A stretch of DNA of 43,978 nucleotides, from the IMG/VR virus record IMGVR_UViG_3300036778_000070, positions 1 through 43,978 of that record; one strand, written 5' to 3'. This document shows, piece after piece, positions 7,940-42,224 of the stretch. Position numbers and translations under genes: made by a program. Origin of the DNA: a virus. Taxonomy: Duplodnaviria; Caudoviricetes. Every line of letters starts with the position of its first letter. The first letter of the stretch is position 1. The notes below the pieces were generated by a model. The model was not told where the DNA came from. It ran no database searches and saw only the letters and a list, made by a program, of their open reading frames with translations.

Positions 7940-8053
7940 GGCGGGGCGGCAGCTATCGACACGGCTGGCCGCCCCACTAACCAACCGAGCCTCTCAGGTG
8001 CTAGAAACACCTGAGAGGCCCGTAACGACACCCGGGGTCAACCGGGCGCCGCC
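7940..8053 (+). ncRNA. Candidate structured RNA (three hairpins)
   Basis: Stems at 7943-7975, 7989-8019 (perfect 12 bp) and 8031-8046 in an intergenic gap. Confidence 0.3.
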
Positions 8054-19834: not shown

Positions 19835-20365
19835 ATGTTTGCAAGTAAAAAGTTCCGCGACGTGTTCACCTTCCCAGCTTTGGGCATTCCGCCAGCACTG
19901 TACGCAACTGGTTCTGTGGCCGGCACGGCAGTACAAATTGCAGCGGTGGGAAGCGGGTCGGGCAACATCGGCGGCTTCAAGAAGTGGGTGTTCATCGGCC
20001 AGACGGGCAGCGGTGGCGCCACCACGACTTGGAACGCATGGATCAATGGCGGGTCTGGCTCGGCCGGTTCCGCTTCGGTCATCTTGCCAGCTTCGTCAAC
20101 CAGCACGTTTTCCGGATCGAACAGCTTCGCAGCGACAACGCTGGGAAGCGTCGTGTTCGGATCTCAGTGCAATATCGTCATGGAAATCCGCGGTGAGTAC
20201 ATTGCTGGGCTCGGGTCCAACTTTACATGGATTCGGCCTGTGATGTCCATCACTGGCGCTTCGGCCTACGCAGCTCTGCTCTCACTTGGGTTCTTGTCCG
20301 GTTCTGAACCGGCCTCGAACTACGACGTGACCGGGGCTGTGTTCGCGGAGACGGATGCGTTTTGA
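19835..20365 (+). CDS. Putative capsid decoration / structural protein
   Basis: Strong AAGGAGG SD; directly after the capsid gene; beta-rich Gly/Ser/Thr sequence. Confidence 0.55.
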   Translation: MFASKKFRDVFTFPALGIPPALYATGSVAGTAVQIAAVGSGSGNIGGFKKWVFIGQTGSGGATTTWNAWINGGSGSAGSASVILPASSTSTFSGSNSFAATTLGSVVFGSQCNIVMEIRGEYIAGLGSNFTWIRPVMSITGASAYAALLSLGFLSGSEPASNYDVTGAVFAETDAF

Positions 20366-20685
20366 GGAATGAAATCCTCGAGGGCCAGAATGGTCATCGT
20401 CAGGAATGCTGGAGGTGGCCATTCTGTCCTTGCTTCATCGGTGTGCAGCCATTTCAACCAAGTAAGTGCACTGAACCTTAAATCTTCAAGGATCGGATGA
20501 ATCTGTTGCTCTGGCCCGTAAAGGATCGTCATTCCATGTTCTGGGTCTGCCCAGCTTGGTCTGGGGAGTGCGCACAGAAGATTATGGGCGGCATCTCTTG
20601 CGGGGCCACGCTTCTTCTCTTCGGCGGCAATCAGGAGCGCTTCAGCTTCCTTGATAATCGGAACAAGATCAACTCTCAATGACAT
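20320..20685 (-). CDS. Hypothetical protein, antisense within the late operon
   Basis: MSLRVDLVPIIKEAEALLIAAEEKK... fills the gap and looks more protein-like than the plus-strand alternatives. Confidence 0.5.
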   Translation of the reverse strand: MSLRVDLVPIIKEAEALLIAAEEKKRGPARDAAHNLLCALPRPSWADPEHGMTILYGPEQQIHPILEDLRFSALTWLKWLHTDEARTEWPPPAFLTMTILALEDFIPQNASVSANTAPVTS

Positions 20686-21683
20686 CCCCCAGATTAACAA
20701 TAGGCATCCCAACCCTCGATAGAGCTGAGATGCTCTCCACGGCTATCGACTCATGTTTAGCCCAGCGAACACCGCTAGGCAAGCCGGTTCCGGTGCATGT
20801 GATTGTAGCCGATCAAGGCGGAACTGATAAGGTCGCTGAAGTGATGCGGCGGTACAGCGAGCATCCCAATGTTGAACACCTTGAGACTTCGGCCAGATGC
20901 CTCTGGGAGAACTGGGATGCCGCAGCGAGAGCGTGTGACACCGAATTCTTCATGTGGCTTCAGGACGATGACGAGATTGCCAAAGGTATAGCGGCCCGGG
21001 TTATTGGCAGCTTCGATGTATTCCCGAAGGCGCTTCACTGGCAAGCCCGGCTTTGTGCTGGTCTCTCTGGGCAGGCCATGGCATGGTGGGGCACCTCGGG
21101 TCCCATGGTGTTGCTCGACATGATCGGGCACAAGCCTCTTCAATACCCAGGCGAAGTGATCCCGCCGTGCATGTATCTAGGCTCTTGGGCCATGTCGCCC
21201 GCGGTGGCGTTCAGGTGCGGTGAGCAGTTCAATCGGGCTCTTGACTGTATGCCGTCCGATGCGGACCTATGGGCAGAGCGAACAATCCTGGCCCTAATGG
21301 GCATGCAAGGGCCATGGATCGCTGATCCGGTCATTGTTGGGCCGTGGATTCATCATGGCGGCAACGAGAGCTATAAGCAGCACCACGACCAAGAACGGCA
21401 GAAGCTGGTGACGCTTGAGGTGCTCGATGATGTCCTTGATCACACGGACTGGCGCGACATTTTTGAGCAATGGTTGCTTTCCATGCGCAACGCGGCCGAC
21501 GTGATGGGCTACCTCAAGGAGTTTCCGGCCGAAGAGTCACGTCATGCTGAAGCACTCAAGGAGGTTATGCGGAAGAGCCTATCAGGTCGCGTGGAGCCAG
21601 TTCTGGAACCCGCTCCCACAGTTGGCGGTCAAGATCTGGTTTGGTCGCAAGAAGCTCTTGATACCATGCGAGCCGCTTCCTGA
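20679..21683 (+). CDS. Glycosyltransferase, GT2-like (GT-A fold)
   Basis: LTIGIPTLDRAEML..AIDSCLAQ, VIVADQG and FMWLQDDD motifs. Confidence 0.88.
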   Translation: MTSPRLTIGIPTLDRAEMLSTAIDSCLAQRTPLGKPVPVHVIVADQGGTDKVAEVMRRYSEHPNVEHLETSARCLWENWDAAARACDTEFFMWLQDDDEIAKGIAARVIGSFDVFPKALHWQARLCAGLSGQAMAWWGTSGPMVLLDMIGHKPLQYPGEVIPPCMYLGSWAMSPAVAFRCGEQFNRALDCMPSDADLWAERTILALMGMQGPWIADPVIVGPWIHHGGNESYKQHHDQERQKLVTLEVLDDVLDHTDWRDIFEQWLLSMRNAADVMGYLKEFPAEESRHAEALKEVMRKSLSGRVEPVLEPAPTVGGQDLVWSQEALDTMRAAS

Positions 21684-23232
21684 AATGCTGACTCAAAAGG
21701 CGATTATTTTTGACGTACGTGTAGGCCAGTTTGGCAAGCTGACCGCGATAGCCGCTGTCGTTGATCATGTATCGCAGGCCAACCTCGAATTCGGTCGGAC
21801 TGCTAATAAGGGCTCTGTCCAGGCGCCAGTCGGGCTCAATGACGGTCTTTCCGTAGACGGTCGGACTTGCCAGCACAGCCACCCCTTCCGCCGCACATTC
21901 CAGGAACTTCAGATCCGATTTACACTCGTTGAATTGGCCGGGCTCGAGGGGGAGCAGGGCGATATTGCATTCTCTGAGCAATCCACGGTAGCGAGCGTAA
22001 TCACAGAATGGGAAGAAGTGCTTGTCGGTCTTGTCGCTGAGAGCGTCGTAGAACTCCCGATCGTGGACGACGATAACCGAGATCCGATTGCCGTATTCGT
22101 CCAAGACGCGATTGAGAGCCGGCATGATCGGCTTCCAATCGTCTTGGCGGTTTTGGGCACCGTAGAAGATATGGATATTGCTGTCGCTGTCCATGTCTCC
22201 CCATGGCGGCAGCTCCGCAATCTGATTCGGGAACACCATCACGTTAGGGTTCCACTGCCGCACGATCTCGGCGAGGGGTTCAGTGCTGACTTGGACGGCA
22301 TGGACGGCTTTCAACGCCATGGGATCAACGCCGATAGCTTCAGGTTCGTCGTCGAGTTCGGCTATCAGCAACAACCTTCTGGCAAGGTTGCGTTGCCAGC
22401 CCAGATCGATAGTACGAAATCGCTGCTGAATGCAAATCCCACCATCGCCAACGTATGCCAGATCGGACAGTGGCCCAGTCGTACACCTCGCGCCGGGGAT
22501 TGTCCCCAGCATCGCGAACGGCTCGAGGATCCGCGGGCGGGCGCAGCACTCTTCGGCCAAGACGGCGTGGATGTGGAGTGGCTTGATTTCAGCAGGCGGT
22601 TTGATCGCTCTTGCCAAGTACTGATAAGCGCGCATCTCCTTGGTCGGCTTGATGCCAGAATCGGCAACCCAGGACTCGAACCCCTCGTTGCAAATATTCC
22701 TGCCGCGAATCTCGAAGACCTGCAACCCAGCCTGCCCGAACATCTCCTGGATCGAGTCGAGGGCGAAGAAGCGGAGATGGGTTTTATCGAGCAGTCCTTC
22801 GTCGGTGTAGGTCCACTTGCCGTTGAGCAAGTCGCGGATAACGGTCCAGTGCCCGACGTTGGGGATGCAGGCGAGGACTTGAGCGCCACACTTCGTACTT
22901 GCGGCGAGATTTTTCAATACGAGCCAAGGATTTCGGAGGTGTTCAAGAACATCTCCAAGAATTACGCAGTCAAAACAATCCTTAACGAAGTGGTCGGAAT
23001 CAACATCGATATCCAATGGATCAAACGATGTCATCCGCGTAAGAGCAATGTCTCTGCATTCCTTATTTGTGTCGACTCCATTCCATTCGACCCTCGGATT
23101 GATCCGCCGATAAGCATCCGCCAGCGCCCCAGCCCCACAGCCGATCTCAAGCACAGTCTTCGCGTCTGGCGGGATGAGGGCCAACAGGTCGGGATTGACT
23201 CTCGAATAGTAAGGGGAAATCTCTTTGCTCAT
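21565..23232 (-). CDS. SAM-dependent methyltransferase fused to a GT-B-like glycosyltransferase
   Basis: VLEIGCGAG, FDCVILGDVLEHL and GLLDKTHLRFF in the N-terminal half; C-terminal IALLPLE...FNECKSDLKFLE; AGGAGG SD before ATG 23232. Confidence 0.88.
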   Translation of the reverse strand: MSKEISPYYSRVNPDLLALIPPDAKTVLEIGCGAGALADAYRRINPRVEWNGVDTNKECRDIALTRMTSFDPLDIDVDSDHFVKDCFDCVILGDVLEHLRNPWLVLKNLAASTKCGAQVLACIPNVGHWTVIRDLLNGKWTYTDEGLLDKTHLRFFALDSIQEMFGQAGLQVFEIRGRNICNEGFESWVADSGIKPTKEMRAYQYLARAIKPPAEIKPLHIHAVLAEECCARPRILEPFAMLGTIPGARCTTGPLSDLAYVGDGGICIQQRFRTIDLGWQRNLARRLLLIAELDDEPEAIGVDPMALKAVHAVQVSTEPLAEIVRQWNPNVMVFPNQIAELPPWGDMDSDSNIHIFYGAQNRQDDWKPIMPALNRVLDEYGNRISVIVVHDREFYDALSDKTDKHFFPFCDYARYRGLLRECNIALLPLEPGQFNECKSDLKFLECAAEGVAVLASPTVYGKTVIEPDWRLDRALISSPTEFEVGLRYMINDSGYRGQLAKLAYTYVKNNRLLSQHFRKRLAWYQELLATKPDLDRQLWERVPELAPRDLIGSSA

Positions 23233-23809
23233 CGGAAACTGGCCTCCTAGAAACCTGAAACTGCGTTTTACCTCTAAGGTTTTCATCGTAGCTGCGAGCG
23301 GCTTTGAGAGCGATTCTAAGTGATTCAAATTCTTGGCGGTTGTCTTCTGTCCAACAGCAGGCTTGGCCAAGCCGATATCCTCGGGATCGTTTGGGCTTTT
23401 GTGATACTTCCTTCAAAAGGTGAACGCCCTGTTTCCATATATGGAAGTCGCGACTCTTTTTGGCCAAAAGTGGATAACGCTCGAAATGTGGAACGACAAC
23501 AGCATTAAGATCTCTGATTTTATTCACTATGTAATCTGCTGACGGATTCGCATTTAATCGTGTGGACGGATAGTTGAAACATCGCACGACGCCAACCTTG
23601 AAATACGACGCAATTGTATCCAGCACAGGACGGTCATCTAGTCTTAGCCTTATGTTGAAACGCGCGTGTGCAATAGGAAGTCTATTCTTTCTTGTCATCC
23701 AAACGAGATTGAAACTTCCTTCGCCGTCCGTAAAGCCAGACAGCCAAGAACCGAAATGATTTCGATCTATATGATCAGGAAATGGTGCGATAGACTGATG
23801 ACTAGCCAT
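23147..23809 (-). CDS. Free-standing LAGLIDADG homing endonuclease
   Basis: WLSGFTDGEGSF motif and 'VVPHFERYPLLAKKSRDFHIW'. Confidence 0.9.
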   Translation of the reverse strand: MASHQSIAPFPDHIDRNHFGSWLSGFTDGEGSFNLVWMTRKNRLPIAHARFNIRLRLDDRPVLDTIASYFKVGVVRCFNYPSTRLNANPSADYIVNKIRDLNAVVVPHFERYPLLAKKSRDFHIWKQGVHLLKEVSQKPKRSRGYRLGQACCWTEDNRQEFESLRIALKAARSYDENLRGKTQFQVSRRPVSDEQRDFPLLFESQSRPVGPHPARREDCA

Positions 23810-23914
23810 GACTTGCTATCTCCTGAGGATAGTGGTTGTGGTCAGGGCCAGCGGATGTTCCACCATCCGTTCGGCCCGCCTCATTATCATATCTTTTATC
23901 ATTCCAAATCGCAA
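23807..23914 (-). promoter_or_regulatory. Promoter plus structured 5' leader (copy A) of the LAGLIDADG gene
   Basis: TTGCGA-17-TATGAT, then a hairpin, TGACCACAAC, an SD-sequestering hairpin and GTCATGGCTA; paralogous to 41854-41937. Confidence 0.7.
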
Positions 23915-23944
23915 GTATCACGTTTTGTTGCGAGGGCCGCATAA

Positions 23945-26329
23945 ATGCGATTCCAGGCAGGGCAACCAGAGATACCGCTTGTTCCCGCTCGAGGCGGGAC
24001 GCTTGTTGAGCCAGAAGTTACGGTTTCCACGCTGCTTGATGCTGCGTTTGGTACTACTCCCGGCGTATTCCTCACGAGAACAACGACCGGATGGAACGCT
24101 TCCGCTGTAGGCTCGGGCACTGGCTCAGTAACATCGATCACCACTGGAACCGGTTTGGCTGGTGGACCTATTACGGTTAGTGGCACCATCTCGATCTCAC
24201 CGGGTGGCATCGGCACGACGCAGCTATCCTCATCAGCGGTAACCTATGCCAAGATTCAAAACGTGTCGGCTAGCAGCTTGCTAGGCAACCCCACGGGCGG
24301 CGGTAGCGCACCACAAGAAATCACGCTTGGTGCTGGGTTGTCGTTCAGTGGCTCAACGCTCGTATCGGTTGGCGGCGGCGGCACGATCACCTCGCTAGCC
24401 GCTGGCACTGGCTTGTCTGGCGGAACGATCACCACGTCCGGCACAATTGCGATCGCCGCGGGCGGAGTGGGGACGACTCAGCTTGCGAACTCTGGTGTCA
24501 CTTATGCCAAGCTCCAAAACGTCTCTGCGGCGGCTCTGTTGGGCAGCCCAACGGGTGGAGCGGCACCAGTAGAAATTACTATTGGTACCGGCCTCTCATT
24601 CTCGGGCTCAACGCTTGTATCCACCAGCAGTGGCGGCACAGTCACCTCGCTCACCACCGGTACCGGCTTAACGGGCGGTCCGATCACCTCAACGGGCACG
24701 ATCGCGATTGCAGCGGGCGGAATAGGCGCGACGCAGCTTGCCACCAGCGCGGTGCAGTACGGCAACATCCAAAACGTCAACGCATCTAGGATTCTGGGCA
24801 ACCCAGGCGTAACGTCTGCCGCGCCATCCGAGATCACGCTAGGTGCCGGCCTATCGTTCAGCGGCAGTGCGTTGACGGCAACCGGCACTGTTGCTTCGGT
24901 GACTGCCGGCACCGGCTTATCTGGAGGGACGATCACGACCAGCGGCACGGTCGCAATTGCCGCGGGAGGCGTGGGAACAACGCAGCTCGCAGCCAGTGCG
25001 GTTCAGTACGCCAATATCCAGAATGTGAGCGCTTCCAAACTTCTTGGCAATCCAACCGGCTCGGGGGCTTCACCCTCTGAAATCACGATTGGCACCGGGC
25101 TATCATTCTCTGGCTCGACGCTAAACGCAACCAGCGGCGGCGGCACCGTGACCTCTCTGTCGGCTGGCACTGGCTTGACTGGTGGCACCATCACCACCTC
25201 GGGCACTGTCGCACTGGCGGCAACTGGCCTGACGATTACTCAGTCTGCCGGGTCGGTGAGCACAGCAACCCAATCGGCAGGGACAGCTACGGTAGATTGG
25301 AGCCTGTCGAACAACTGGCAAGTGACGCTCAACGCCAACCTGACGATCGCGTTCAGCAATGTGCCATCCAGCCAGAGCCAGAAGCTCAAACTTAAGCTAA
25401 TCCAGGCAGCGTCAGGCGGCCCGTTCACGATCGCCGCGTTTCCATCGGGAACCACATGGGTAGGCTCGTCAGGCCCTCCGGGGATGCCAGCTACTGCGTC
25501 AAGCTATATGACGGTCGTGTTTGAATCGACGTCCTCCACCACCTGGGACGCGTACTTCCTCGGTGTCAATGGCGTGAGCAGTGGCGGTGGAACTGCGGTC
25601 ACCGAGACTTCCGAAACCGCAAGCTTCTCGGCGGCTGCCGGGAATCTCTACGCAATCTCGGGCTCATCGGCGGTAACCGCAACCCTGCCAACGGCTGTCG
25701 GCATCACTGGCCAGACCATCCGCCTGCGATGCGCTAACGGTTATACGGGGCTTCTGACGATCGCCACAACCTCGAGCCAGACACTAGGCCCAAGTGGGGC
25801 CACAAGCCAGATCCTCTATGCGGGCGAGTCGGCGCTAGTGCAATCCGATGGCTCGAACTGGGTGCGCACGGGGGGCACGATCATTCCGGCCTCGTGCACT
25901 ATTACGCCCGCAGGCACGCAGTCCATCCCGGATCTAACTAGTACTAAAGTTGCATTTGATACGCTCGCTTACGACAACACCGGCCAGATGGCGGTTACTG
26001 CGTCGAACGAAATCCAGATTCTTCGGCCGGGCCGTTACGCTATTTCTGCGTCGGCATATTTTGATTCGCTGTCAGCACAAGAATACTCAATACTGGCTGA
26101 CGTCTTCACGAACGGCAGCCCAAACGGGCTTACGTTTCGCACCTTGATTCCGATAGCAACCGGATCGCTGCCCACGAACGTTATTCTAGTTCCGCAAGGT
26201 TCTATTACCTGTGCGGCTGGCGATGTCATAACCCTGAATATCAGTCAGGTTAACACGGCAGCTAGCGCGGAAACGCTTTTCCAAGGGCCGTACACGTTTC
26301 TGACCGTCACAGAAATCCCACGGTGGTGA
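23945..26329 (+). CDS. Fibre-like structural protein with tandem repeats and a C1q/BclA-like C-terminal domain
   Basis: Gly/Thr/Ser-rich with ~85-aa repeats; C-terminus KVAFDTLAYDN...ILRPGRYAISASAYF. Confidence 0.75.
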   Translation: MRFQAGQPEIPLVPARGGTLVEPEVTVSTLLDAAFGTTPGVFLTRTTTGWNASAVGSGTGSVTSITTGTGLAGGPITVSGTISISPGGIGTTQLSSSAVTYAKIQNVSASSLLGNPTGGGSAPQEITLGAGLSFSGSTLVSVGGGGTITSLAAGTGLSGGTITTSGTIAIAAGGVGTTQLANSGVTYAKLQNVSAAALLGSPTGGAAPVEITIGTGLSFSGSTLVSTSSGGTVTSLTTGTGLTGGPITSTGTIAIAAGGIGATQLATSAVQYGNIQNVNASRILGNPGVTSAAPSEITLGAGLSFSGSALTATGTVASVTAGTGLSGGTITTSGTVAIAAGGVGTTQLAASAVQYANIQNVSASKLLGNPTGSGASPSEITIGTGLSFSGSTLNATSGGGTVTSLSAGTGLTGGTITTSGTVALAATGLTITQSAGSVSTATQSAGTATVDWSLSNNWQVTLNANLTIAFSNVPSSQSQKLKLKLIQAASGGPFTIAAFPSGTTWVGSSGPPGMPATASSYMTVVFESTSSTTWDAYFLGVNGVSSGGGTAVTETSETASFSAAAGNLYAISGSSAVTATLPTAVGITGQTIRLRCANGYTGLLTIATTSSQTLGPSGATSQILYAGESALVQSDGSNWVRTGGTIIPASCTITPAGTQSIPDLTSTKVAFDTLAYDNTGQMAVTASNEIQILRPGRYAISASAYFDSLSAQEYSILADVFTNGSPNGLTFRTLIPIATGSLPTNVILVPQGSITCAAGDVITLNISQVNTAASAETLFQGPYTFLTVTEIPRW
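24115..25220 (+). repeat. Four-plus degenerate ~255-nt coding repeats
   Basis: Unit G.VTS...GTGL.GG.IT.SGT...GG.GTTQLA...YA.IQNVSA..LLG.P....EIT.G.GLSFSGS; boundaries approximate. Confidence 0.85.
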
Positions 26330-36800: not shown

Positions 36801-37174
36801 ACTGGACTGAGGCTCTTGAAATCGTGGTTAGTCGTACCAGCGTGGAGCGGTATCACTTCTTATGTTCGGACCAGTATCCAGATCACACAAGGTGGCGACA
36901 AGCCATGGTTCGCATGGCGTCGGAAACCACAGACTTCCCTCCATTGGTCACGCAGGCTCAGAACCTCTTCCGCTCGGCCCGCGGCTTCGTCCGGTCTGGG
37001 TTCAAGCTGGCCAGCAAATTAGAACGGGCACGGCGGCTAGAGATATGCCGCGTATGCCCGAAGTACGTCGGTAATCGGTGCTCTGTTTGTGGCTGTGCGA
37101 GTGCCGCAAAAACTTGGGTGGCATCAGACCGATGTCCGCTCGATCCACCCAAGTGGTCAGCCGTGACCGACTAG
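36797..37174 (+). CDS. Cys-rich (DUF6171-like) protein
   Basis: RLEICRVCP...CSVCGC...K.......CPLDPPKW pattern. Confidence 0.6.
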   Translation: MNWTEALEIVVSRTSVERYHFLCSDQYPDHTRWRQAMVRMASETTDFPPLVTQAQNLFRSARGFVRSGFKLASKLERARRLEICRVCPKYVGNRCSVCGCASAAKTWVASDRCPLDPPKWSAVTD

Positions 37175-38307
37175 TTTCCTTGCATCATCCTGGCGAAGTC
37201 GCCAGTCGGCGAGCTGTTCTCGGACGATGACACCTGGCCTGTCTTTGAGAATAACGCCACCAGCCAGCTAGAATTAGTCGGCACGGCGCCAACGTCGGCG
37301 CGATTGCCGAGCCAGAAAAACAGCACGCCAGAACTCAGGCCGATTGAGCTAGGCGTTGAATAGATCGTGGTAGGCACCACGGTTCCATCCGGGTTGACGA
37401 TGATGTCAACGTTCCCGGTCGTCTGATTGACCGGCAGCCGGCTCCGGTTGGTTCTCAGGTCGACAACGACGCTCTGGGGCAGCACGGTTGTTCTGGCCGC
37501 ATTAGCAGGCGCAGGACGGCGTCGAATCGCGTAGCTCGCGCCGATGGTGTTCTGCGAGGCTAGCACGCCAAGCCATGTCTCTGGCTCCCACTCGGCTGAT
37601 TCGTCGGTCGTGTTGTTGGCGTTGTTGTCCACTCCGTCAAAACCCTCGTCTACCCAGCCGTTGGCGTTGTCGTCCTTGCCGTTGACGAGTAGCAGGTAAT
37701 CGAGGGTCCTGGTAACCGTCTGGCCGTCTGGCGAGGTGAACACGCGGCTTACCGGGCTGGTTGTGCCAGGATCGCCGACACCGACAAACTGTTCAGCGTT
37801 CGCGGTGACCACAGGGCCGCATACCGTGTACCACGGGCCAGCGTTGTTGATCTGAACCTTATCGCCAACACGGACGTTCCAAAACCACGACGTGGGAGAA
37901 TTGGGAACCCAGGCCCATATTCCTGTTTTGGGATCCTGCACCCAAGAGCCGGGCAACTCCTCGAGCACAAGGGCTGACGTGCCCAGCATCACGCCCGCGG
38001 TATAGGCTTGCGTCGGATAGATCGACACAAGCCCATCCTGATAAGCAGGCGGCATGGCCAGAGGGATTATCTGACTGGAGGTTAACGGCAGTAACGGATC
38101 GGCCAACAGCCGTATTCCGCTCGGCGAGTTATCCCGAATGGCGGCATCCCTGGCGCCGGCGAGGGCTGCCTGAAGAATGCGGGCGCTCTCGCTCATCTGA
38201 CGGTCGCCTATCCCGGTCAAGAGCGTGGGCAGCGTCACGGCGCTTATCAGGATGATGATGGTGATCACAACCAACAGTTCGATCAGCGTGAAGCCATGTC
38301 GACGCAT
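37171..38307 (-). CDS. Prepilin-type N-terminal cleavage/methylation protein (FimT/GspH-like, planctomycete style)
   Basis: MRRHG|FTLIELLVVITIIILISAVTLP class III signal with E5; acidic DxDxN repeats; AGGAG SD. Confidence 0.9.
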   Translation of the reverse strand: MRRHGFTLIELLVVITIIILISAVTLPTLLTGIGDRQMSESARILQAALAGARDAAIRDNSPSGIRLLADPLLPLTSSQIIPLAMPPAYQDGLVSIYPTQAYTAGVMLGTSALVLEELPGSWVQDPKTGIWAWVPNSPTSWFWNVRVGDKVQINNAGPWYTVCGPVVTANAEQFVGVGDPGTTSPVSRVFTSPDGQTVTRTLDYLLLVNGKDDNANGWVDEGFDGVDNNANNTTDESAEWEPETWLGVLASQNTIGASYAIRRRPAPANAARTTVLPQSVVVDLRTNRSRLPVNQTTGNVDIIVNPDGTVVPTTIYSTPSSIGLSSGVLFFWLGNRADVGAVPTNSSWLVALFSKTGQVSSSENSSPTGDFARMMQGN

Positions 38308-40273: not shown

Positions 40274-40340
40274 ATGGTATCTCCTTTCGTGAGATGTTCT
40301 CAGGATGTCTCAAGTATATCCTTCCCACGAAAGGAGTCAA

Positions 40341-41339
40341 ATGCCCCGACCAGCGAAAATATGGGCGCGCAAGAACCGGCCCGGTTTCTACGCCACGATC
40401 GGCAAACAGAAGGTGTTTCTAGGGCTGGACCGCGCGCACGCTGAGCGTGAATTTCACAGATTAAAAGCCGCTACCAAGCCCATCCCACGATCCAAGCAGC
40501 GCGTGGATACTTTGGTGGATTTGTATCTCGATCACGCCTCACGCGAGGTCAGGGAGAGCACGTTCATCAATTACAAATGGTTCCTTCAATCGTGGTGCGA
40601 CCACGCCGGCAGCCGGATAGCCTCGGAACTAAAACCGCTCGACGTGGCGGCGTGGGTGGCAGGGCAGCAGTGGAACCCGACCACGCGGCACCAGGCGATC
40701 TCGATCGCCATCCGGTGGTCGCGGTGGTGCAAACGTATGGGTCACTTGGACCGGCATGTGCTAGAGGATACACCCAGGCCGAAGCAGCTCGTCAGGGAGG
40801 CGGCTCCCCCAGAAGAGATCGACCAATTGCTAGCGGCCATCCCAGACCAGCAATTGCGCGACATCGCGACGGTGATATTCGACAGCGGTGCCCGCCCAGG
40901 CGAGATTCGCACGTTGACGGCGGCTCAGATCAACTGGGAAGCCCGCTCGGCCGTGGTGACTGGTAAGCGTGGATCGCGGATCATCAGCCTGACGGAACGG
41001 TCGATAGCGATACTCGAGCGCTGCGCTATCACGGTGAAGGATGGGCCACTGCTCCTCAACATGGAGGGCAGGCCCTGGTCAAAGACTATGTTGCCCAAGC
41101 GGTTTAACAGGTTATGCAAACGGCTTGGAATCCACGTAGTTCCCTATATGTTGAGACATGACCTGTATCGACGCGCCAGTAAAGCAGGAGCCTCTGATTT
41201 GGCGATCGCCAAACAATTAGGACATGCAGACTTGAAGATGTTGGCGGCTCATTACGCTCATATAGATACTACACAAACGAGAGATGTAGTAGACGCGGCT
41301 GCCGCTAAGCCACGTGAGCCCAAGTCCGACGATCCCTGA
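40341..41339 (+). CDS. int: Tyrosine integrase
   Basis: SGARPGEI (R), GKRG (K), YMLRH, LGH and HYAH catalytic motifs; AAGGAG SD. Confidence 0.92.
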   Translation: MPRPAKIWARKNRPGFYATIGKQKVFLGLDRAHAEREFHRLKAATKPIPRSKQRVDTLVDLYLDHASREVRESTFINYKWFLQSWCDHAGSRIASELKPLDVAAWVAGQQWNPTTRHQAISIAIRWSRWCKRMGHLDRHVLEDTPRPKQLVREAAPPEEIDQLLAAIPDQQLRDIATVIFDSGARPGEIRTLTAAQINWEARSAVVTGKRGSRIISLTERSIAILERCAITVKDGPLLLNMEGRPWSKTMLPKRFNRLCKRLGIHVVPYMLRHDLYRRASKAGASDLAIAKQLGHADLKMLAAHYAHIDTTQTRDVVDAAAAKPREPKSDDP

Positions 41340-41856
41340 TATCCATTATCGCGGGACAATGGACTCCATACTTTCGTCCGATTGCACGTAAGGACATCAA
41401 TCCACAGGCAATGTCTTTGCGGATTTCTATGACCTGTGCTTCTGTGAGTTTAGCCGAACCCATTTTTTCACCACGTGCACCACGGCCATTCCGTTTTCTG
41501 TCCGCAAAGTTTTCACGCACTGTTCCGTATCGAATATTTGACGGATAGTTATTCCGTTTATTGTCATCCATATGGCGAGTTTCCAGGTTATCAGGTCGCT
41601 CCCCATACATTAATTCTGCAATCACCTGATGCAAATAAACGTATCGATGTTTTCCGTTAAGCTTCCAGTGGAAAGCCTCGTAGCCTGCCTTTAGGAAATG
41701 CGTTTTGATGATACGCCACTTTGATGACGTTTTGTTCTTCTTTCCACCCTTAACGCTGAAGCTGCGTATCCGCCAGTCACTGCTGATCTGGTGATGAGGG
41801 AGCGAAGGAATCTGATACCAAACTTCGCCGGGCGTGGTAGGATCGATGATAGCCAT
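41305..41856 (-). CDS. HNH homing endonuclease (NUMOD4-like N-terminus, C-terminal HTH)
   Basis: EVWYQIP...QISS..RIRS, LHQVI..., RHMDDNKRNNYPSNIRYGT and AKLTEAQV motifs. Confidence 0.9.
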   Translation of the reverse strand: MAIIDPTTPGEVWYQIPSLPHHQISSDWRIRSFSVKGGKKNKTSSKWRIIKTHFLKAGYEAFHWKLNGKHRYVYLHQVIAELMYGERPDNLETRHMDDNKRNNYPSNIRYGTVRENFADRKRNGRGARGEKMGSAKLTEAQVIEIRKDIACGLMSLRAIGRKYGVHCPAIMDIRDRRTWAHVA

Positions 41857-41937
41857 GACGTGTTCCTTGCACAAAAGGAATGTTGTGGTCAGAGCCGGGC
41901 GGGTGGTAACAACACCTGTTCGGCTCGTTCTATTATA
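41854..41937 (-). promoter_or_regulatory. -10 box plus structured 5' leader (copy B) of the HNH gene
   Basis: TATAAT, hairpin, TGACCACAAC, SD-sequestering hairpin and GTCATGGCTA; paralogous to 23807-23891. Confidence 0.7.
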
Positions 41938-41957
41938 TCAATCATATGCTCGTAAGT

Positions 41958-42224
41958 CTAGACGACCCGTCGTGATTTCCTCTCTTCCCGTGTCTTGATC
42001 CACTTCAAGTTCGGCACCGCCGCAACCCGCCGCTCCACCCGCACCGGCTCGTCAACCTGATAGCGCGACGCCTCGAGGTAAGCGGCGAGATCCGACTCAG
42101 TGAACAGGATGCGCCTACCTAGCTGCCGGCACGGGATCTTGCCCGCTTTGGCGTGGCGGCGCACACTGTCCGGCGAGATTCGCAGGATGGCGGCGGCATC
42201 GGCGATGGTTAGGAGGGGGGTCAC
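41958..42224 (-). CDS. xis: Excisionase-family HTH_17 protein
   Basis: LLTIADAAAILRISPDSVRRHAKAGKIP...GRRILFTESDL; close to the integrase. Confidence 0.8.
   Translation of the reverse strand: MTPLLTIADAAAILRISPDSVRRHAKAGKIPCRQLGRRILFTESDLAAYLEASRYQVDEPVRVERRVAAVPNLKWIKTREERKSRRVV

Follow-up and report, generated by a model that had tools for sequence, protein, structure and literature searches.

Two unrelated nuclease genes of a virus genome carry predicted antisense RNA cassettes homologous to those of SymR and RepX

The regions heading two nuclease genes of a virus (copies A and B) are homologous to the control region of E. coli symE/symR and very probably work alike, with an antisense RNA of about 80 nt predicted from sequence comparison to block translation of the nuclease. 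Both reside in a 43,978-base linear virus record, the whole of which is referred to here as the window, along with genes for terminase, portal, capsid, integrase and excisionase; one further product, encoded at 37171-38307 (minus strand), is a prepilin-type N-terminal methylation protein and may, we presume, point to a Planctomycetota/PVC host. The two sequences quoted in the original prediction, which was made from the DNA alone, were both recovered on the minus strand as given, and its identical linker was confirmed: the linker 10-mer and the start-codon 10-mer are each unique to copies A and B in the 43,978-base window and are equally spaced. The nuclease genes are unrelated, as had been stated, a LAGLIDADG_1 ORF following A and an HNH_3 ORF following B according to Pfam. 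Taken alone, the pair is weak evidence. The best blastn E value between the copies is 0.014, a weak sequence likeness on its own, and the folding z-scores of the single strands are only about -2. With 226 non-identical homologues, across which hairpin 1 covaries strongly, a chance likeness can be dismissed.

At locus A, a promoter-like site for the mRNA, TTGCGA-17-TATGAT, was found at 23886..23914 on the minus strand; its function is inferred, and although it matches 9 of 12 consensus positions it is weak by itself, since shuffled sequences yield 0.6 such sites per region. The predicted SymR-family antisense RNA of about 80 nt occupies 23804..23885 on the plus strand, where Rfam symR matches 23804-23880 (38.4 bits) and our model R1 gives 57.1 bits. 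It would comprise a 5' stem-loop over the start codon and Shine-Dalgarno (SD) sequence, followed by a 3' hairpin (23845-23877) with a weak U tail; no terminator was called here by a simple terminator scan. The antisense strand folds with -39.7 kcal/mol, compared to -27.4 kcal/mol for the sense strand. The putative antisense -10 box TAGACT (23791..23796, plus strand) lies within nuclease codons 5-7, 7 nt upstream of the predicted +1, as in E. coli symR, and a search for its -35 element gave no good match. The ATG at 23809 opens a free-standing, single-motif LAGLIDADG endonuclease gene of 220 aa (23147..23809, minus strand; LAGLIDADG_1, PF00961, E 1.6e-17), the product of which has 16 relatives of 39-47% identity. 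Its 3' end overlaps the start of the next gene by 86 nt in a different frame (23147-23232), and this tail may be run-on sequence, the nearest homologue (L023) being devoid of most of it. The downstream gene (21565..23232, minus strand), assigned to Methyltransf_23 by Pfam and to a glycosyltransferase PHROG, is possibly co-transcribed from the promoter of the copy A cassette.

At locus B, the forward promoter-like site TAGACT-17-TG.TATAAT (41932..41960, minus strand) matches 10 of 12 consensus positions and has an extended -10. The predicted antisense RNA, again of about 80 nt (41851..41934, plus strand; R1 74.5 bits), ends in an intrinsic-terminator-like hairpin, which the terminator scan placed at 41892-41926 with 14 pairs and a U-rich tail. 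Both R1 scores, 57.1 bits for A and 74.5 bits for B, refer to members of the training set. The antisense strand of copy B folds with -43.6 versus -24.1 kcal/mol for the sense strand, and a putative extended antisense -10, TG.TAGGAT (41835..41843, plus strand; box at 41838), is located in codons 5-8, 7 nt upstream of the predicted +1. From the ATG at 41856 runs a free-standing HNH endonuclease gene of 183 aa (41305..41856, minus strand; HNH_3, E 4.5e-12; PHROG HNH families). It is flanked by an excisionase-like HTH gene upstream of copy B (41958..42224, minus strand) and by a convergent tyrosine integrase gene (40305..41339, plus strand), which overlaps its 3' end. In both copies the forward promoters are sigma-70-like and lie directly upstream of hairpin 1. 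Upstream of A and B no SOS box of the E. coli type or of the other patterns tried was found; the LexA motif of the host may differ. Elsewhere in the window, a partial R1 match of 21 bits at 7987-8021 (minus strand) covers the hairpin only and is probably an ordinary terminator-like hairpin.

Homologues were collected by pattern scans, which returned at least 396 loci (2 + 44 viral, 110 from GTDB, and at least 120 plus at least 120 further viral ones). When these loci were filtered for the core motif, an upstream hairpin and a start codon, 239 non-identical elements remained, copies A and B and E. coli symE among them. Nine failed a more stringent hairpin test and 4 more were removed by eye as chance (L020, L065, L069, L358), which brought the set to 226. 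One of the viral scans produced mostly chance matches, only 11 of its 120 listed loci passing the first filter. The GTDB matches belong mostly to Proteobacteria, with several in Planctomycetota and a few in other phyla. As the search patterns fix the linker and start-codon columns, conservation there is circular, and hairpin 1 and the positions after codon 2 were left free. Among 101 genomes of the phylum of genome G001, at least 5 have R1 matches, with 46 candidates scored per genome. Multiple copies occur in single genomes: 16 in Pelagibius, 17 in Dyella and 4 in Burkholderia lata. The search for homologues that had been proposed together with the original prediction delivered further ones with covariation, and their downstream genes were tabulated.

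Judging by these sequences, the conserved structure belongs to the strand opposite the mRNA. Hairpin 1, though selected by its sense fold, is more stable on the antisense strand in 198 of the 226 members, with a mean gain of 6.1 kcal/mol, compared to 1.6 kcal/mol and 156/226 in a shuffled control, and G-U pairs number 447 on the antisense strand versus 90 on the sense strand. The linker and the anti-start-codon segment form an outer helix, which is complete (8 of 8 pairs) on the antisense strand in 209/225 members and reaches 6 of 8 pairs at most on the sense strand; the antisense pairing explains the conservation of the linker. A U-rich tail (at least 4 U in 9 nt) follows hairpin 1 on the antisense strand in 133/225. 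In 102 model-aligned matches, the alignment being model-fitted, 95.4% of the cells pair and 468 two-sided changes were counted, against 149 in shuffled sequences, and slid controls showed 33-49% pairing. Because the search patterns fixed most outer-helix columns and alignment A2 was made to fit the model, the outer-helix and A2 counts lean toward structure. The sense strand also forms two hairpins, which hide the SD sequence by pairing most of it in 146/199 members, and a cis effect of this fold probably adds to the antisense control. The SD sequence had been described as buried in both copies, which holds for B; in A it lies half in the loop.

A second line of evidence is a -10 element concealed in the first codons of the cargo gene. 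The antisense motif TAnnnT occurs at ORF positions +12..+15 in 139 of 229 elements (counted before the last 4 were dropped), as opposed to 8 of 203 other SD-bearing starts at the same loci and 2 of 37 starts beginning with ATGGC; a strict antisense -10 is absent from 90 of the 229. Of the pyrimidine-ending codons at position 6, 122 of 134 have T as their last base; the share is 69% at codon 5 and 19-44% at codons 3, 4 and 7-19. The 87 such starts encode 46 different tripeptides, and this combination of synonymous bias and varied tripeptides indicates selection on the DNA and not on the protein. Conservation of the antisense -35 is modest (TT in 50/140, versus 12-23 well off register). The antisense -10 takes a common place in A, B, symR, RepX and one PtaRNA1 locus. 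It is present in 21 of 23 distinct R1 matches at loci chosen by the LAGLIDADG protein alone, and in 27 of 38 held-out new loci found with RNA models, many of them paralogues; 7 of the 11 misses come from one alphaproteobacterium and keep TA, only the last T being absent. In Pelagibius litoralis (G002 loci, L400-L427), the antisense -10 boxes of the 16 copies keep TA without the final T, and the cargo includes paralogous HTH-like proteins and proteins with twin-arginine-like N-termini, a label assigned by eye. In E. coli, the symR promoter is embedded in symE and a -10 mutation abolishes SymR, according to the part of Kawano, Aravind & Storz 2007 (PMC1891008) available here; SymE rises seven-fold in the symR -10 mutant, as given in an excerpt of a review (PMC4147584).

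Comparison with known RNA families was undertaken at several levels. No Rfam family matches any part of the window at its gathering threshold, but the element is homologous to the characterised SymR and RepX, which partly refutes the original prediction on its own terms. Against the plus strand of copy A, Rfam symR (RF01809) gave a full-length match at 23804-23880 with 38.4 bits (E 5.3e-6; cut-off 61), and copy B gave no match to it at E<=10. At a relaxed threshold, Plasmid_R1162 (RF00043, cut-off 55) weakly matches the mRNA strand of both A and B (24.1 and 20.5 bits), and neither window copy matches PtaRNA1 (RF01811, cut-off 47 bits). Homology to CHARACTERISED RNAs is most evident in copy A, which among the 225 members gives the best score with E. 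coli symR and in which 48 of the 60 aligned bases, from the linker to codon 9, are identical to E. coli symE/symR. The model R1, trained on 60 members with symE loci excluded, found a single match in the 4.64 Mb E. coli K-12 chromosome (4579835-4579916, plus strand, 43 bits) in a run with stricter filters and 3 candidates scored, and this match begins at the first base of the annotated symR (4579835-4579911). Eleven other symE-type loci scored 52-67 bits, versus at most 28 bits for pattern-only chance loci. R1 also matches the antisense of the pRSF1010 repA start (43.6 bits), which is the RepX site. The PtaRNA1 locus above the Rfam cut-off reaches just 26.9 bits, on the correct strand and span, so the link made by R1 to PtaRNA1 is weak; seven sub-cut-off PtaRNA1 matches reach 46-64 bits. 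One member (L272), among 20 loci scanned, has below-cut-off matches to all three Rfam families.

The Rfam Plasmid_R1162 model matches the mRNA strand and ends in the start codon (L429:2822-2901), whereas RepX itself is said to be antisense to repA. Apparently, the wrong strand was used to build the model, a choice that would mask its kinship with symR. By blastn, copy A yielded short partial matches only in 50,697 phage records, as did copy B in 72,556 plasmid records, and the E. coli symR region matched three Salmonella records among those of phages. No Rfam or Pfam match to IscB/HEARO or to a TnpB-type RNA-guided nuclease was obtained for the window elements, and HDV-like and hammerhead ribozymes and the kink-turn were dropped because of a topology misfit, judged by eye against consensus structures, and no Rfam match.

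The window cassette shares with E. coli SymR/symE (RF01809; PMC1891008) a colinear sequence, a +1 opposite codon 2, a -10 in codons 5-7, and a length of about 77-80 nt with two stem-loops spanning the SD sequence and start codon. It differs in its phage location and in its cargo, a LAGLIDADG or HNH nuclease instead of the AbrB-fold SymE, as well as in having no LexA-type box found at A or B and a score of 38.4 bits versus the cut-off of 61. RepX, the 75-nt R1162 RNA of IncQ plasmids (RF00043), is likewise antisense to the repA ribosome-binding site and start codon, with the -10 in the same place, but governs a replication helicase and copy number and is bound by FinO, as far as the part consulted of PMC8136791 describes. 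PtaRNA1/XCV2162 (RF01811) resembles the window cassette in the strand and span of the R1 match and in the -10 position, and differs in that its true locus scores only 26.9 bits and the window copies have no RF01811 match. The A/B cassette is homologous to SymR and RepX and probably works like them, but it falls outside the SymE systems and, in the strict sense, outside every Rfam family.

The cargo of the cassette is diverse. The 195 downstream ORFs of at least 40 aa fall into at least 104 single-linkage protein families, and 31 members have shorter ORFs. Naming was attempted with Pfam for 172 representatives and with PHROGs for 29 proteins, most of them being without a match; the named cargo includes nucleases of the HNH types, EndoVII, GIY-YIG and LAGLIDADG, as well as SymE, Rha, Bro-N, AntA, DUF2924, RadC, ParB, serine and tyrosine recombinases and a trypsin-like protease. 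At least 50 of 225 members carry nuclease cargo (47/129 viral and 3/96 cellular), a lower bound because short flanks left some proteins incomplete. The module is not, as had been supposed, specific to nucleases, and a guide or mobility role of the leader finds no support, the element being common to non-nuclease genes. A forward -10 adjoins the hairpin in 42/50 nuclease members versus 31/175 others, so nuclease cassettes are usually self-contained units. The unit, comprising a forward promoter, two hairpins, the SD sequence and the first ~7 codons, appears to be portable and joined to many unrelated mobile-element genes. The cassette precedes DUF2924 and large serine recombinase-like genes (L059, L074, L104, L126, L159, L213, L215, L534, L535, L540), several of them in Planctomycetota, which suggests antisense control of recombinase modules. 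In Dyella marensis (G004), 8 of the 17 copies precede near-identical ORFs of a 33-aa basic peptide (L413, L416, L418, L420, L422, L424, L426, L428), which may represent an unannotated multi-copy family of peptides controlled by antisense RNA.

Among 80 loci selected by LAGLIDADG similarity, an R1 match over the start codon was observed in 26 of the closest 35 and in 1 of the other 45; ten of these matches are under 30 bits and one is a training locus. A free-standing LAGLIDADG clade thus has the cassette, which 44 of 45 distant relatives lack; in several of these relatives (L489-L527) the upstream motifs resemble what we take to be group I intron core elements. In a complete related phage (G105), whose integrase is 90% identical, the HNH gene and cassette B are absent from the equivalent site; their slot is filled by a 284-aa gene (L438:3505-4359), which overlaps the excisionase stop, has no NCBIfam match and is unrelated to the HNH gene. 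No full-length element was found anywhere in this phage. The portable promoter-plus-riboregulator with interchangeable nucleases, as originally envisaged, is thus upheld in its portability by the four nuclease families and by the other, cassette-free gene at site B; its choice of strand and mechanism is not borne out. Viral contigs yielded no relatives of the methyltransferase gene with which to look for an empty site of A, and G105 was rejected as such a site, its whole region corresponding to 20000-24374 being missing.

The reading on which the original prediction was based, namely a purely cis-acting leader of the T4 type, in which two hairpins of the mRNA bury the ribosome site with no antisense RNA, is improbable. 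It draws on the two sense hairpins described above and on the forward -10 beside the hairpin in most nuclease members, and it has a precedent in the T4 hairpins of I-TevI, segB and mobE, which also silence endonuclease translation by RNA structure at the ribosome site (in the sections consulted of PMC2988022). Those hairpins, however, act in cis and are removed by promoter choice, the T4 late promoter excluding the hairpin from the transcript, and a dedicated antisense RNA gene is not named in the same sections; the promoter at A and B, by contrast, precedes both hairpins. Folding energy and G-U pairs favour the antisense strand, as does the U-rich tail, and the conserved antisense -10 inside the ORF would be left without a role. 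The TGAC:GTCA pairing proposed at the start codon was also rejected, because the register is broken in 95 of the 99 members whose linker is the CTAACC variant, all four pairs being kept in the other 4.

Still less probable is the explanation that hairpin 1 mainly terminates opposing read-through, from the late operon at A and from the integrase gene at B, with the antisense promoter causing transcriptional interference and not pairing. Copy A does abut structural genes on the plus strand, copy B converges with the integrase gene, and the B hairpin is a terminator-like site of the plus strand; on the other hand, the conserved 5' stem-loop of the antisense strand (the outer helix) is unneeded for termination or interference, and SymR represses in trans (PMC1891008, in the part available). 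It is scarcely credible that the hairpin, as RNA or DNA, serves as a guide bound by the nuclease or as a mobility end in a new RNA/DNA-nuclease element: enrichment before nucleases in viral contigs and confinement to the free-standing LAGLIDADG clade are what this would lead one to expect, but the element also heads SymE, RepA, Rha, Bro-N, AntA, RadC, ParB, recombinase and protease genes, it is common to four structurally unrelated nuclease families, no second shared end was found between regions A and B, and no HEARO or similar family of Rfam matches.

For the SymR-like antisense mechanism preferred here, we infer transcription, repression, the trigger of release and the route of transfer. 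Forward transcripts would, by homology, begin at hairpin 1, and a predicted promoter in nuclease codons 5-7 would give rise to an ~80-nt two-hairpin RNA off the opposite strand, starting opposite codon 2 and ending after hairpin 1. Both predicted RNAs span the SD sequence and the start (+23804-23885 versus ATG 23809; +41851-41934 versus ATG 41856). Their mirrored loops may initiate pairing with the RNA's own mRNA, and the duplex over the ribosome site and start codon would block translation. The calculated duplex energies are -184 and -174 kcal/mol for the cognate pairs and -79 and -89 kcal/mol for the A/B cross pairs. The LAGLIDADG and HNH nucleases would then stay silent until mRNA outnumbers antisense RNA, the sense fold that hides the SD sequence probably serving as an additional cis brake. 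The mechanism has been demonstrated for SymR (PMC1891008) and for RepX, the 75-nt R1162 RNA antisense at repA, which is also reported to be very stable (both RepX statements from the part consulted of PMC8136791); by analogy, this stability seems to make addiction-type killing less likely.

Cis-antisense block of the ribosome site is a textbook mechanism. What is new here, as far as sequence comparison indicates, is the presence of nuclease cargo on an antisense cassette of the SymR/RepX family. In a literature search from which subscription journals were largely absent, no paper was found that joins SymR with RepX or PtaRNA1, links SymR to nucleases or describes the breadth of the cassette, and the motif was not matched in the text or the 6 supplementary files of PMC10690425. 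In the portions of the sources available, Kawano et al. (PMC1891008) describe conservation upstream of some symE genes only, the antitoxins of Serratia symE are called unidentified (PMC7725324), and type I antisense systems are regarded as toxin-bound and narrow in distribution (PMC5367252).

We lean towards the view that SymR, RepX (R1162 RNA) and PtaRNA1, so far treated as three families unrelated to one another and narrow in range, belong to one large superfamily. Its members would be portable antisense cassettes of ~130 bp with two promoters, which include the first ~7 codons of the cargo and which mobile elements attach to any gene that is risky to express (more than 100 protein families, with as many as 17 copies in a genome). 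On the same view, capture of the cassette gives homing endonucleases of four families a promoter and a brake of their own, and may have enabled a LAGLIDADG lineage to persist outside introns as free-standing genes. The data suggest that the RNA module rather than the protein is the conserved, mobile unit, hidden by the Rfam cut-offs. Unannotated sRNAs would be predicted ahead of Rha, Bro-N, AntA, recombinase and orphan symE genes, and the cassette is a possible answer to how free-standing homing endonucleases are controlled outside T4-like phages.
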